A DNA stretch of 64,000 bases, taken from contig NC_092673.1 of assembly GCF_964355755.1 (NCBI RefSeq), positions 35,213,648 through 35,277,647 on the forward strand, given 5' to 3'. The position numbers were made by a program, and so were the translations under genes. This DNA comes from Antedon mediterranea (Eukaryota > Animalia > Echinodermata). The first letter of the stretch is position 1, and the number at the start of each line of letters is the position of its first letter. This document shows, one piece after another, positions 37,038 to 56,111 of this stretch. A model generated the notes under the pieces. That model worked only from the letters and a program-made list of their open reading frames with translations, did not search any database and was not told the DNA's origin.

Positions 37038-38172
37038 CAGTGGCGGATCTAGGGGGGGGGGGGTGAATAGGGTGGCTAGCCACCCCCCTTAATTCTAAAA
37101 AAAAAAAAAAAAAGATGCAACCTAATCGCGATTGACCGTCGCTAGACGTGGATTAATCTTTTAATTAAGAAGAGTAGGCCTAGCTAGCTAGGCCCTACTA
37201 GAGCTAGCATTAATAGTTGTGTGTAAATAGGCCTACACAGTGAAAGAGCTAAAGAGTTCAATTACTATTATGAATTCAAGAGTTTAAAAAGAAAACACGA
37301 TTTACAATCTTCGGAAAATACCCATTTTCAAAACACACGCACTCCTAAAACTACCAGCGTCACGTTGTCAAGCTCGCTCCTCGTGTGAATGCTGACGTCA
37401 TCACTCTCCCAAATACACCATTTTCCATTGCAGTTAATTTCCGCCGCCCTGGTCACGTCCGTCCGTGTGTGCACAAGCGTTAGCGTGGTATATTTACACC
37501 CCTGAGTGGAGTGTAATATTGGGAACTTTTTTCTCGCGCATGAAAGTTTTTTGTATAATATTATGGTATGCAGTATAAACGATAAAAATAAACGAGAAAC
37601 ATGGTGTTCTTTTATTATTTTATAGGCATAAAATAAACATGAAATGTCTTGTATGTACACGGGACGGCCGAAAAAAGTATGTGGCGTATTTATTTGGCGT
37701 TTTTTGATTTGCGTTATAGACACGGCGATTACTGCAATCATTGTATACCAAATTACATTGAGTTATTCACCCGGCTGTAGGGTATATATCTCTGAGGTTA
37801 ACAGACAACCAAAACACGGTACACAACACATGCACTCTATCGAGGCATTTTCGGAGTACCGCATTAATGTTCATTTTGTTTGAAGGTTTTTCGATCAAAG
37901 TTTATTATTAGTTCGTCGAAAAAGATCCGTACAGTAGGCCTATTTAGGAAGGATGTATTTAAATTTACATTAGGCCCCTATGTAATATTTGTTATTAAGT
38001 GTGAAACAGTTTCTCTAGCCTATTAAACAGTGTGTAAGCATCTATTTTTTTAAAAATTTTCGGAACCTCCAGAGGGGACACCCCCTCCCAAACCCTCCCC
38101 CGCTCGGTGCTACGCACCTCGTTTGCCACTTCCGTAGCCACCCCCCCTCGTCAGATCCTAGATCCGCCACTG
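37038..38172. mobile_element. Non-autonomous DNA transposon with 5-bp TSD (hAT5-like)
   Basis: TIRs CAGTGGCGGATCTAGG / CCTAGATCCGCCACTG, flanked by GTGTC on both sides. Confidence 0.75.
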
Positions 38173-49772: not shown

Positions 49773-50274
49773 CTGTTGGGAGAGCAAAACAATTATAACA
49801 GTAAAGTGTTGGTACTAATGGTTAGCAATTAAAAGTGTAAATTGTACGTACTTAAGCTAAATTGCATAAGGGCCAAGTCAATGCCATTTATTTACTGATA
49901 TTTAGTAGCCATGCTGAAAATAAACAAACATCAGCATACAGAAAAACGTTGCTGTTGATACAGTAGCTATATTTTGTTACGTCTGGGTCGTCAAACCTCA
50001 GGATAAGTGAAATGGATAATAAATTAATTAGAAAGTAAATTTCTCCATGAGAAATCCTTCATTATCACCATTGTAATTAAGAGATTTATGACTGAAAAGA
50101 AGAAGGTCACCAGTGACATCATCACGTCTGTAATTGTCTGCAATGTAATTCTTTGCAAAAATAATTTAAATGAAACATTATAATTATAATTGTAGTGTGT
50201 ACTTGACCAGGAAAAAATGACAGTGTTCATTGACAAGAGAGTCTACAATAAAAAATGCAACACGTTTTGCATGG

Positions 50275-51530
50275 CAATGAAATATTGACAAACTGAAAAG
50301 AACTAGAGAGCATACTCAATGAAATATTGACAAACTGAAAAGAACTAGAGAGCATACTCAATGAAATATTGACAAACTGAAAAGAACTAGAGAGCATACT
50401 CAATGAAATATTGACAAACTGAAAAGAACTAGAGAGCGTACTCAATGAAATGTTGACAAACTGAAAAGAACTAGAAAGCGTACTCAATGAAATATTGACA
50501 AACTGAAAAGAACTAGAGAGCATACTCAATGAAATATTTACAAACTGAAAAGAACTAGAGAGCGTACTCAATGAAATATTGACAAACTGAAAAGAACTAG
50601 AGAGCATACTCAATGAAATATTGACAAACTGAAAAGAACTAGAGAGCATACTCAATGAAATATTGACAAACTGAAAAGAACTAGAGAGCATACTCAATGA
50701 AATATTGACAAACTGAAAAGAACTAGAGAGCATACTCAATGAAATATTGACAAACTGAAAAGAACTAGAGAGCGTACTCAATGAAATATTGACAAACTGA
50801 AAAGAACTAGAGAGCATACTCAATGAAATATTGACAAACTGAAAAGAACTAGAGAGCATACTCAATGAAATATTGACAAACTGAAAAGAACTAGAGAGCA
50901 TACTCAATGAAATATTGACAAACTGAAAAGAACTAGAGAGCGTACTCAATGAAATATTGACAAACTGAAAACAACTAGAGAGCGTACTCAATGAAATATT
51001 GACAAACTGAAAAGAACTAGAGAGCATACTCAATGAAATATTGACAAACTGAAAAGAACTAGAGAGCATACTCAATGAAATATTGACAAACTGAAAAGAA
51101 CTAGAAAGCGTACTCAATGAAATATTGACAAACTGAAAAGAACTAGAGCGTACTCAATGAAATATTGACAAACTGAAAAGAACTAGAGAGCGTACTCAAT
51201 GAAATATTGACAAACTGAAAAGAACTAGAGAGCATACTCAATGAAATATTGACAAACTGAAAAGAACTAGAGAGCATACTCAATGAAATATTGACAAACT
51301 GAAAAGAACTAGAGAGCATACTCAATGAAATATTGACAAACTGAAAAGAACTAGAGAGCATACTCAATGAAATATTGACAAACTGAAAAGAACTAGAGAG
51401 CGTACTCAATGAAATATTGACAAACTGAAAAGAACTAGAGAGCATACTCAATGAAATATTGACAAACTGAAAAGAACTAGAGCGTACTCAATGAAATATT
51501 GACAAACTGAAAAGAACTAGAGAGCGTACT
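50275..51530. repeat. 42-bp minisatellite, about 30 copies
   Basis: Unit caatgaaatattgacaaactgaaaagaactagagagc(a/g)tact. Confidence 0.95.
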
Positions 51531-51628
51531 GACAAGCAAGCAACTGAGATTCAAGAATTCAAGAACTAGAGAGCGTACTGACAAGCAACTGATCGAAAAT
51601 GAGTACAACTGAAAGGAAGTAGTGTATG

Positions 51629-52997
51629 ACGTCATGAGGTAATTTCCCGATTGATCGTAATCAAAACCGTACTGGGTTTGGTCTACTAGCGTTCCTGCTC
51701 CCAACCAGTAAATCCATTCATAGAAGCCTTAATGAAGTAAGCCTACCTGGTGGTGGCCATAGAACGGTCCCGAGATAACGACTATACTTCGGCTTTAGTC
51801 GATAGAAGATTGAATAAATTGTTAGAATAGAGTATACGATGTTATGATTATGTGTAGATATGTGATTTGTTCTTTTTATTCAAATGATGTTATGTATTTA
51901 ATAAATTTGTTATATCAATTAATTAAATTATCGTAGATTGCATATTATGCGATGAATATTATTTAATAAATGTTTGATATATTATTATTATTATATTAAT
52001 AAAAAAGATATTTGTTAGTATAAATAAAAAATATAGATATAAGGAAGAAAAGCAAAGAGATTATGGAGCGGCTGTACCAGAATATACAACACTAAGTATT
52101 GTAAAGTTAATATATTAAAAATTTAGGCGATCTTGTCAAAGGTCAAGCGCCTTCAGCCTTCCACGTTTCGATATTCAATATTGAACTTGACCTGACGTGG
52201 TTCCACAATATCTTTATATGAAAATGGTAGAGTGGATAGAAACATAAATTAATTTAAATTTAAAATGTTTACCTTAAACTGGTTTTGAACTGAATCGGTT
52301 GATGTCTTATCGTTGTATGTATGATTTGGTTTGGTTTAAATTATGTTCGATAAAAGTGCGTATGCGTATAGAATGAAATGCTCGCGTTACGATGTACGCG
52401 TGTAATGCTGTTTATATCGTATAATAGATAAAGGATGAAAATATAGAAGGTATGATGGTAGAAAAATAAAAAAGCAGTTTAGGATGTAGAAATAGGAAAA
52501 GTTTGTTAGTGCCAAAGTGTAGATTTTGAATGCGAGAAATTACTAGAAAGTACATTCCTGCTAGAGTCCTATGTCGGCACCTAGGCCTATATAACGTCAT
52601 GAGGTAATTTTCCGATTGATCGTAATCAAAACGGTACTGGTGGGTTTGGTCTACTAGCGTTCCTGCTCCCAACCAGTACATCCATTCATAGAAGCCTTAA
52701 TGAAGTAAACCTACCTGGTGGTGGCCATAGAACGGTCCCGAGATAACGACTATACTTCGGCTTTAGTCGATAGAAGATTGAATAAATTGTTAGAGATAGA
52801 GTATACGATGTTATGATTATGTGTAGATATGTGATTTGTTCTTTTTATTCAAATGATGTTACAGTATGTATAATAAATTTGTTATATCAATTAATTAAAT
52901 TATTGTAGATTGCATATTATGCGATGAATATTATTTAATAAATTTTTGATATATTATTATTATTATATTAATAAAAAAGATATTTGTTAGTATAAAT
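51629..52997 (-). mobile_element. Non-coding retrozyme/Penelope-like insertion, ~965-bp monomer in partial tandem
   Basis: Near-identical ~400-bp direct repeats at 51629-52025 and 52594-52997; flanking target sequence duplicated (51561-51629 and 53060-53128); hammerhead-like motif inside. Confidence 0.6.
52125..52200 (-). ncRNA. Candidate non-circularly permuted hammerhead ribozyme (U3-A8 variant)
   Basis: Minus strand CCACGU-C-AGGUCAAG-UUCAAUAUUGAA-U-AUC-GAA-ACGUGG-AAGGCUGA-AGGCG-CUUGACCU-UUGACAA-GAU-CGCCU. Stem III is 6 bp, stem I 8 bp, stem II 3 bp; GUC cleavage triplet, GAAA and UUGACAA core are all present. Confidence 0.65.
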
Positions 52998-53148
52998 GCA
53001 CGAAAAAGAACTAGAAAAGAAACTAGAGAGCGTACTCAATGAAATATTGACAAACTGAAAAGAACTAGAGAGCGTACTGACAAGCAACTGATCGAAAATG
53101 AGTACAACTGAAAGGAAGTAGTGTATGAGTCTTTATGTCGACAATGAA

Positions 53149-53360
53149 ACTGATTGTAACTTGTTATGATTACCATACACACACATCACATACTGATTGT
53201 AACTTGTTATGACCATACACACACATCACATACTGATTGTAACTTGTTATGATTACCATACACACACATCACATACTGATTGTAACTTGTTATGATTACC
53301 ATACACACACATCACATACTGATTGTAACTTGTTATGATTACCATACACACACATCACAT
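53149..53360. repeat. 43-bp minisatellite, 5 copies
   Basis: Unit actgattgtaacttgttatgattaccatacacacacatcacat. Confidence 0.95.
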
Positions 53361-54349
53361 GATTCATGGTTGATTAAGAACCAAACTTGTGTCTTCTTGG
53401 ATAAGAACTTAAAACTGGAGGTCTTCTGTACATATCTGCAATGGGCTTTTGGTTGAATGTTTTGCTATAAATTACATTTTTTTCATGTAATTTTTTTTTC
53501 TTTTTTCGATCCAAACTATTGTGTGACATTAAAATAGCATATTCAACAAACAAATTTAAAACAATATTTTTTCAGGGGATAATATCTTTAAATCACAATG
53601 AGAGAAAACTTTAAAATTGCTATTTTTCAGTTTTAGTAATTTAATACATTTATCTGCATTTAAGCATAATTATAATAACCATGCATTCTTGATTCAAAGC
53701 AAAAGAGATAACATAGGTCCAAAACTATATCATATTATTACTGTACTTATAAAAAAAACTGTGTTAAATTTGAATAAGTGATTAGCTCAGAAATTTCAAA
53801 ATGTATGTTTTATCTTTTTCGTATTGGCAAGGTTTGGAAATCTCTCCATTATTGATTTTATTTACTGTTAATGTTGAATTGACAACTCGTAATTAAAAGT
53901 TTCCCTATGGGAATCAATCATGCACTGCATTTCTGAACAATGATTTAACAGGAATGGCAGAGTATTGAAAACACTAAAATGTTTCATTTTAAAATTATAA
54001 TATAATCAGCTTAATTAAAGCTTTGATAATATTATTAATTACAAGTTGTAATGTATGTTGTGGAAAAATTGATTTATTTATGGTAATATCGTTGATATTT
54101 AAAGTTGAATTTAGTAATGTGTGATGACAATTTTTCTTTGCCAGACAGAAGGCAATATTTCTTAATGATGTGAGACAAGAGCACTTTCTAGGACAATTAT
54201 TATAAGTTGTTTATTTTGGAGGAAAATGGTTTAAAATACAGTTCAACAGAATTAAACTTTTTAGATAAATAACAATTTTTTTTTAAATTGGGGTACTTCT
54301 GGTATTATAGTAAATTTATGTAACTATTCATATTTTCATTTCAGACTGT

Positions 54350-55092
54350 GGCTACGGTCACACTAAAGCCTCAAGCCTGGCACGACTTAACGCGATTGAG
54401 ATTTCAAGCCAGGCTTGAGTTTATTGGGCGGTCACACTATTCGAATACTGTTCGGAATTCAGTCAGCTAGCTAAATAGATTACGTGAGCCAATCTGTAGT
54501 ACAATTTTATTTAGAATTCACTAGGCCTATGCATTTTGTTGTTAATGTAGATGATTTAAATTTTTAAAATATATATAATGTAATCGATCGACTGATCGTA
54601 AGCATAGGCCTGCCGCAGACAGAGGCGGTATCCTATCTAATACTACTGTAGTAGGCTAGCCGATGCTAGTTTCGTCTTCAATTCACTAGATGGCAATGCA
54701 CAGAGTACAAAATGCCGGTGATAGTTACGAAGGACCTCAGATTACAAGAAGAAAAATTAATGCACAAATCTCTTTGATATCTTCACGTGTTATCTAAAAA
54801 CTCAACCAAAACCCGACGAAACGATCCACACAAAAAAAAGCCATGTGGATATCCATCCACTCTAAAATTCCCAATAAACAACACAGAGTTGATGGCTGTG
54901 ATTGGCCAGATTCCAAAAAAAATATCAATCCCGGTCATGCTAAGGTTAACTCAGGGTCAATCTGGGTAGCGCGTCTGGGTTGAGTTGGATTGAAATTGAT
55001 TTCAAGCCAGTCGCGTGCGATCCACGTTCGGTCACACTACAAAAATCTCAATCGCGGTGAGTTGCGCCAGGCTTGAGGCTGTGAACGTAGCC
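54350..55092. mobile_element. Harbinger-like non-autonomous DNA transposon
   Basis: Long imperfect TIRs GGCTACGGTCACAC..AGCCTCAAGCCTGGC..CGCGATTGAGATT / AATCTCAATCGCG..GCCAGGCTTGAGGCT GTGAACGTAGCC. Confidence 0.7.
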
Positions 55093-55126
55093 TTTATGAT
55101 TGTTAAATAAGTGTAAAAAAATACAG

Positions 55127-55858
55127 TTCACCCTGATTTAGGGGACACTTTGTATGGACCTAAAGATGTCCACCCTGATTTAGGGGACACTTTGTATGGA
55201 CCTAAAGATGTCCACCCTGATTTAGGGGACACTTTGTATGGACCTAAAGATGTCCACCCTGATTTAGGGGACACTTTGTATGGACCTAAAGATGTCCACC
55301 CTGATTTAGGGGACACTTTGTATGGACCTAAAGATGTCCACCCTGATTTAGGGGACACTTTGTATGGACCTAAAGATGTCCACCCTGATTTAGGGGACAC
55401 TTTGTATGGACCTAAAGATGTCCACCCTGATTTAGGGGACACTTTGTATGGACCTAAAGATGTCCACCCTGATTTAGGGGACAACACTTTGTATGGACCT
55501 AAAGATGTCCACCCTGATTTAGGGGACACTTTGTATGGACCTAAAGATGTCCACCCTGATTTAGGGGACACTTTGTATGGACCTAAAGATGTCCACCCTG
55601 ATTTAGGGGACAACACTTTGTATGGACCTAAAGATGTCCACCCTGATTTAGGGGACAACACTTTGTATGGACCTAAAGATGTCCACCCTGATTTAGGGGA
55701 CAACACTTTGTATGGACCTAAAGATGTCCACCCTGATTTAGGGGACACTTTGTATGGACCTAAAGATGTCCACCCTGATTTAGGGGACACTTTGTATGGA
55801 CCTAAAGATGTCCACCCTGATTTAGGGGACAACACTTTGTATCGACCTAAAGATGTCC
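55127..55858. repeat. 39-bp minisatellite (42-bp variants), about 18 copies
   Basis: Unit caccctgatttaggggacactttgtatggacctaaagatgtc. Confidence 0.95.
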
Positions 55859-56111
55859 CATTAATAGAGTTAGGATTTAATATGCAATACAAATTTAATA
55901 GACTCACATTATTCTTTTAGAAGCTCTTAAAACTTTAATTTTATCAAAACAAAGTAAGTAGACAAAATGTCTGTAACAGATAATCTGAAGGTGTTCCGCA
56001 TGATCGGTTAGACCTGGTTGACTGTACGGTTGATTGCACAAATCAGAAAACAATTTTGCAAATGTCATTCACCCAATCACACAATAAAATGCCAGATTTA
56101 AAGATACCTAC

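Follow-up and report, generated by a model that had tools for sequence, protein, structure and literature searches.

A candidate type-SGC hammerhead ribozyme with a U3-A8 core in a multi-copy repeat, probably a non-autonomous retroelement, from the genome of Antedon mediterranea

A non-coding repeat in an intron of the echinoderm Antedon mediterranea carries a candidate hammerhead ribozyme whose three core blocks follow each other in the non-circularly permuted order S-G-C. We consider it likely that this ribozyme, with a predicted cut after position 52194, sets the RNA 5' end of a non-autonomous retroelement which is probably copied by a reverse transcriptase of the Naiad type. All positions are those of the window, i.e., the whole stretch of 64,000 nt analysed here, counted from its first letter.

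An earlier note on this DNA, made from the letters alone, had proposed a rearranged hammerhead at 52200-52125 of the minus strand. Direct reading of the sequence recovered all of its segments and pairings at these coordinates, with 26 pairs in five helices, every one of them Watson-Crick (six in stem III, eight in stem I, three in stem II, five in the closing helix and four in the linker hairpin). The hammerhead core is complete, with U16.1-C17 at 52195/52194, GAAA at 52169-52166 and UUGACAA at 52139-52133; the G10.1-C11.1 pair is present, and the core fits the consensus YUGANRA, GAAA and UH with a 3-8 pair and A15.1-U16.1. Stems I, II and III adjoin these core blocks. The 3-8 pair is U3-A8 in place of C3-G8, and the note's assumption that this exchange is tolerated is borne out by its natural occurrence and its activity in vitro (PMC3088659). 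The proposed departure from circular permutation was confirmed by a descriptor, which returned for this motif the order S-G-C and none of the orders CGS, GSC and SCG of types I, II and III. The parts of the predicted ribozyme are as follows.

52194..52200, minus strand: 5' half of block S with the stem III strand, U16.1 and C17 (sequence, pairing, copy boundaries)
Between 52194 and 52193, minus strand: predicted cut (core position, copy boundaries)
52186..52193, minus strand: 3' half of block S, the 8-nt stem I strand and predicted 5' end of the cleaved RNA (sequence, pairing)
52174..52185, minus strand: hairpin of 4 bp in the S-G linker, pair probabilities 0.76-0.94 (pairing)
52161..52172, minus strand: block G with a stem II strand, GAAA and a stem III strand (sequence, pairing)
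52153..52160, minus strand: G-C linker, seat of the three commonest copy variants at 52153, 52154 and 52160 (copies)
52125..52152, minus strand: block C with a stem I strand, the UUGACAA core and a stem II strand (sequence, pairing; layout as in PMC10085705)
52152-52148 with 52129-52125, minus strand: 5-bp stem I-II helix closing block C (pair probabilities 0.90-0.97)

The order S-G-C was named type SGC by Eckert et al. (2023), who validated five such RNAs in vitro and used mutants to demonstrate the need for the helix that closes block C (PMC10085705). Their 583 SGC sequences all came from metatranscriptomes, near hairpin ribozymes, and according to that paper the type was not found in any genome of a known organism; type CSG is known there from two metagenome sequences. 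The statement in the earlier note that rearranged hammerheads were reported only in a few animal lineages was mistaken; this order had been published from metatranscriptomes only. Both of the extra helices that it pointed out are present, but the closing one was already described and mutationally validated for SGC. Judged by its letters, the candidate agrees with type SGC in all features that can be tested. It resembles HRIMA-1 and its variants in block order, core positions, the stem I-II helix and a length of about 80 nt. It differs from the published SGC RNAs in the U3-A8 core, as only three atypical cores are named among the 583 in PMC10085705, none of them of this kind, and three UUGA-type strings are absent from the supplement. 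Further differences are the S-G linker, which has 13 nt with a hairpin here and about 3 nt in HRIMA-1, and the source, which is animal genomic DNA here and metatranscriptomes for HRIMA-1 and its variants. HRIMA-1 proper is set apart by its description, which calls for CUGAnGA, a short S-G linker and a fixed 5-bp stem I sequence, whereas we find UUGACAA, the 13-nt linker and an 8-bp stem I. Because the search pattern of that study demands CUGAUGAG and an S-G linker of 0-8 nt, it could not have retrieved this RNA with its UUGACAAG and longer linker. The compensatory swap of the 3-8 pair is shared with the hammerhead variants of PMC3088659, whose passage on U3-A8 concerns neither non-circular orders nor animal retroelements. 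Rfam gave no match at the gathering score, ribozyme included, as the note had anticipated for standard descriptors, and its sole weak match was a snoRNA outside the element (E 0.13). A literature search, judged by titles and abstracts and covering mostly journals other than subscription journals, listed no paper that assigns type SGC or CSG to the genomes of animals or to Naiads.

A loose descriptor allowing any block order gave three matches in the window compared to 0.53 per shuffled window, and at least 17 Watson-Crick pairs in stems I-III were reached by only one match in 3286 dinucleotide shuffles. A second descriptor, for a non-circular order plus the closing helix, had this motif as its single match in the window; shuffled sequences gave a relaxed match in 154 of 3780 cases and an equally good one in 0 of 3780, a wide margin for descriptors that were both written after the motif had been seen. 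Two loose matches of type I order with UUGAUAA cores lie at 38135 and 35693 (minus strand), a number within the chance expectation. A second copy is absent from the window. When folded as a nested structure, the RNA retains three helices (stem III, the linker hairpin and the closing helix, with pair probabilities of 0.76-1.0). The strands of stem I and those of stem II remain in loops, and these two stems would form as pseudoknots that connect the two domains. The stacking energy of stem I is -14.6 kcal/mol, and that of all helices sums to -44 kcal/mol without loop costs versus a nested minimum of -21, a comparison which is indicative only. The z-score of the nested fold is unremarkable (-0.95), as expected because two of the helices are pseudoknots. 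Stem II is short with its 3 bp, and the minimum-energy nested fold pairs CUUG with CAAG of the core, which represents a competing, weaker alternative.

We also scanned sequence collections for related ribozymes. A loose pattern yielded 87 stretches in the viral collection, and the descriptor gave seven matches over 88 loci, one of them with SGC order in a viral contig (L046:285-350, with a UUGAGAA core and stems of 6/4/4 bp with G-U pairs allowed), which is probably due to chance. Tighter patterns, in which the letters of stem II and some of those of stem I are set and which would let distant relatives escape, produced no match in the prokaryote genomes or the viral collection and one in the metagenomes; this lies on a GC-rich, coding-like contig that has no similarity to the window.

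The earlier note had missed both the surrounding retroelement and the host intron. The ribozyme lies inside a 1373-bp partial-tandem insertion comprising 1.4 units of a 972-bp period, which reads on the minus strand as repeat R (52997-52590), segment U, the ribozyme, 99 nt and repeat R again (52025-51625).

52590..52997, minus strand: upstream direct repeat R, 408 bp, pseudo-LTR-like truncated copy (repeat comparison)
52203..52589, minus strand: unique segment U from R to the ribozyme, with a depth far below that of R or the ribozyme (contig depth)
52026..52124, minus strand: T-rich segment 3' of the ribozyme, belonging to the unit of high depth (contig depth)
51625..52025, minus strand: downstream direct repeat R, 401 bp, with the putative start of reverse transcription at its end (repeat comparison)
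53060..53128, no strand: left copy of the flanking duplication, a putative target-site duplication (69 bp identical)
51561..51629, no strand: right copy of the flanking duplication, heading a 42-bp minisatellite (repeat comparison)
49773..56111, minus strand: host intron, bounded by the exons 56182-56112 and 49772-49741 (splice sites with agreeing phase)

The two R copies are 95.8% identical and form the partial tandem with pseudo-LTRs that is typical of non-autonomous derivatives of Penelope-like elements (PLEs); partial tandems and pseudo-LTRs are described as traits of PLEs and Naiads (PMC8557442). The end of the downstream R resembles the 5' half of the cleavage site and has 2 nt in common with the flanking duplication, whose identical 69 bp extend to about 120 bp at 86%. 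The element has a longest open frame of 94 aa with no Pfam match, the scan of the window covering the 150 longest of 293 open stretches, and the ORF with GIY-YIG endonuclease and reverse transcriptase of an autonomous Penelope-like element (Naiad) is absent. A tRNA-derived SINE head was rejected, as no tRNA was found. Repeat R folds no better than its shuffles on either strand, and twister-like and SECIS-like readings of it by eye failed in their pairings.

Exons for TPR (63915-57064) and GoLoco domains (17358-10996) were recognised by Pfam on the minus strand and span most of the window; from this domain layout, we take the host to be a GPSM/AGS3/LGN-like animal gene. The ribozyme lies within its intron 56111-49773 in sense orientation to the host transcript and therefore would cut the host pre-mRNA. 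The window is AT-rich with many minisatellites, host introns included. The insertion itself heads a minisatellite of 30 copies of 42 bp (50275-51530 and 53009-53128). About two of the units are found duplicated across the insertion, and the right-hand copy is interrupted by a local duplication of 49 nt.

The earlier note had suggested a search for copies, and the element family indeed proved to be multi-copy in at least two organisms: the 972-bp monomer is partly present in fourteen sequencing runs from 7 studies, and four of the runs, from organisms A and B, gave 1472, 266, 526 and 662 contigs that aligned to it. The depth is highest on the ribozyme and on 52587-52800 in R and far lower on U; the summed contig depth is not a copy number. 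The pieces listed are a small selection out of about 3000. Of these, 13 extend into the ribozyme from the downstream side; nine of the 13 stop at 52193-52195 (organisms A and B), and the other four stop at 52150, 52182, 52188 and 52241. Five of these nine continue into unrelated sequence, apparently at three loci (pieces 16 and 24, and likewise 17 and 25, are likely the same two loci in two samples), and four are contig ends. These boundaries agree, if indirectly, with the cut position predicted from the core. In run X1, both of the largest absolute drops in depth are located within 52180-52197, and loose ends that differ from one another lie behind 52185 (three contigs), 52190 (three) and 52193 (four). 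The boundaries in organism A scatter over 52185-52198, 52213, 52223 and 52241, other X1 pieces have their ends at 52186-52241, and the table of shared ends shows no place shared by many contig ends in either contig alignment. Two joints, 52192-52597 and 52202-52595, tie the end of R to the region of the cut.

Variants at or above 1% in the X1 copies concentrate in the G-C linker, at 52153 and 52154 (18-19%) and 52160 (99.6%). The first base of the closing helix (52152) varies in 2% and G12 at 52169, a CpG site, in 1.3% of the depth, and position 52200 differs in single contigs. Compensatory changes in the stems were absent among the X1 copies of this young family, whose youth alone may account for the conservation. 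The ribozyme is also present in four contigs of organism D with changes in the linker, and the region 52090-52260 is covered by one contig in run X10 and by none in run X11.

Naiads are partial-tandem PLEs described as lacking canonical hammerheads (Craig et al. 2021, PMC8557442); eight of them are tagged 'half core' there, with the second half 35-50 nt away on either side. We read the 3' regions of 31 of the 54 Naiad consensi of that paper purely by eye; they were chosen by motif matches and headers instead of at random, and their names follow the file order. A non-circular hammerhead with the helix closing block C was recognised in ten of the 31 3' ends. Seven of these (Naiad Parc, Nbra-1, Nbra-2, Nbra-3, Hcon, Hpol and Ptep) have the order CSG with 5-7 bp in stem I, 4-5 in stem II, 5-11 in stem III and 7-16 in the closing helix, all with different letters. 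Type SGC was seen in Smim (8 bp in stem I, 7-10 in stem III and 15 in the closing helix), in the spider Naiad Sdum (8 bp in stem I, 3 in stem II, 6 in stem III and 24 in the closing helix) and, more weakly, in Ovul. Naiad Sdum shares the SGC order, the linker hairpin, the closing helix and the U3-A8 core with our candidate; the layout is kept with different letters in Sdum and Smim, and we take this as a likeness of layout. In Dst-4, blocks G and C and the closing helix are visible with S out of view; Chem-4, Movir-2 and Esco are ambiguous, and in 13 of the 31 no core is visible over roughly the last 600 nt. Naiad Lpol, Dst-1, Dst-2 and Dst-3 have the order S-G-C, and their stems I and III are good, but a normal stem II is missing, with block S of the ostracod Naiads roughly 250-300 nt upstream of block G, an arrangement which may represent a further wiring.

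At the opposite end, eight of 23 Naiad 5' starts examined by eye (those of Sglo, Pmar, Mcor, Mgal, Bpla, Pfla-1, Pfla-2 and Cmel) begin with CUGCUGGU-hairpin-CC(G/A)AG, and this motif recurs in both R copies of our element, with a rough chance expectation of 1e-7 per unit, the pattern having been picked post hoc.

51747..51774, plus strand: Naiad 5'-end motif CUGSUGGU-hairpin-CCGAG in R, antisense to the ribozyme (Naiad consensi)
52715..52742, plus strand: second copy of the Naiad 5'-end motif, in the other R (Naiad consensi)

The element thus resembles Naiads in its pseudo-LTR partial tandem and the 5'-end motif and differs from them in having no ORF and in carrying the motif antisense to the ribozyme; the sequence in common is this short motif only, and it comes from Naiads of other species. 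One idea for the origin of the antisense motif is a head-to-head Naiad junction. The hairpin of the motif varies among Naiads yet stays paired, and two enclosing helices are seen in several of them. In most, the motif lies 20-35 nt from the 5' end, a spot where a self-cleaving RNA could be expected. The 3' ends read by eye show no hammerhead in Pmar, Mcor, Mgal, Pfla-1 and Pfla-2, which carry the 5' motif. The hammerhead-free 3' UTRs of CGi, Tgra, Pmar, Skow-1, Skow-2, Pfla-1 and Pfla-2 have a common motif, CGGGUG ... GCAGG ... GCU ... CACC, and a 10-nt echo of its middle, perhaps by chance, occurs in R near 52668-52657 of the minus strand.

We propose that the transcript would enter from upstream, either from the host intron or from an upstream copy. 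Two nested domains would fold first, one in which stem III encloses blocks S and G and one in which the 5-bp helix encloses block C, and then kiss via stems I and II, which would create the usual hammerhead core and leave a 5'-OH at 52193 by standard hammerhead chemistry. A Penelope-like reverse transcriptase would initiate internally, where R ends, and copy in the direction of the 5' end. By running off at the cut, it would produce copies of about 570 bp starting at 52193, the common short form; template jumps would explain the head-to-tail joints 52192-52597 and 52202-52595, and an uncut or circular 972-nt template the rarer R-U-ribozyme-R form of this locus. Initiation inside the RNA is reported for a Poseidon PLE (PMC11167929). 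The same paper describes ribozyme cleavage as dispensable in vitro for an anole PLE, with no reads starting at the cut, and therefore the boundaries observed here are the more telling, if they hold. We lean towards the wider view that non-circular hammerheads, instead of being a rare feature of viroid-like RNAs, reside as ribozymes in a large part of the Naiad clade and in its non-autonomous offspring across animals, with the cut fixing the 5' ends of the copies here; the consensi read by eye suggest a distribution with SGC in spiders and octopus and CSG in nematodes and a spider.

If type SGC indeed occurs in a high-copy animal repeat and SGC and CSG in Naiads, doubly pseudoknotted RNAs enter ordinary animal genomes. 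Non-circular hammerheads in Naiads would also explain why descriptor searches called these elements hammerhead-free, and they would provide numerous natural sequences with which to study covariation and structure. Copies starting at the cut site make the role of PLE hammerheads directly testable, and a cut that fixes 5' ends would be genomic evidence for a PLE hammerhead acting in the transposition cycle.

A strict retrozyme cycle departs from this preferred reading in the intermediate only: the SGC ribozyme would be real, tandem copies would be cut twice, and a cut-to-cut monomer of 570 or 972 nt would be circularised and build up as circular RNA before reinsertion. The 1.4 units of the insertion and the tandem junction 52997-52027 present in contigs speak for such a cycle. 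The end of R resembles the 5' half of the cleavage site, so that joining units head to tail would restore a stem III of 4 bp. Like the animal non-LTR retrozymes (PMC7229834; Li et al. 2026, 10.64898/2026.07.22.740005), the element is non-coding, AT-rich, multi-copy and hammerhead-bearing, and those elements are likewise tied to PLE pseudo-LTRs and long flanking, i.e., target-site, duplications. They occur in tandem and make circles (PMC7229834), and family lengths of up to 972 bp occur (10.64898/2026.07.22.740005). However, the animal retrozymes described in these sources have one type I hammerhead per tandem unit and mostly 170-400 nt, whereas this copy has a single ribozyme of type SGC in its 1.4 units. 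We keep this cycle as a tentative alternative.

It is unlikely that the ribozyme is an idle piece of a Naiad 3' UTR, caught in an inverted junction of an element that moves through a plus-strand RNA with its start near the Naiad 5' motif. The Naiad 5' motif on the plus strand would fit such an origin, as would the inverted truncated copies beside 5' ends that are typical of Naiads (PMC8557442) and the lack of covariation in the family, but the ribozyme core is intact, and an antisense ribozyme would not account for the clustering of copy boundaries at the cut on the minus strand.

It is highly improbable that a viroid-like circular RNA, the kind that yielded the first SGC ribozymes, left an endogenised fragment here. 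The metatranscriptomic origin of all 583 published SGC sequences near hairpin ribozymes and a unit of viroid-like size are in its favour; against it stand the absence of a second hammerhead core on either strand of the element and of any Rfam ribozyme, a GC content of about 30%, an R without notable fold, the viral, metagenome and prokaryote collections without match, and the Naiad motif with its pseudo-LTR layout. That the parts came together by chance, or that the fold does not form at all, is barely credible: the descriptors were fitted with the motif already in view, nested folding offers a competitor and the pseudoknotted fold is a prediction from pairings, but no shuffle was equally good, copy boundaries lie at the cut, and Naiads show the same architecture in different letters.

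Elsewhere in the host intron, two similar segments in opposite orientation (54380-54410 and 55050-55075), noticed by eye, flank about 650 bp and resemble the inverted ends of a small DNA transposon.
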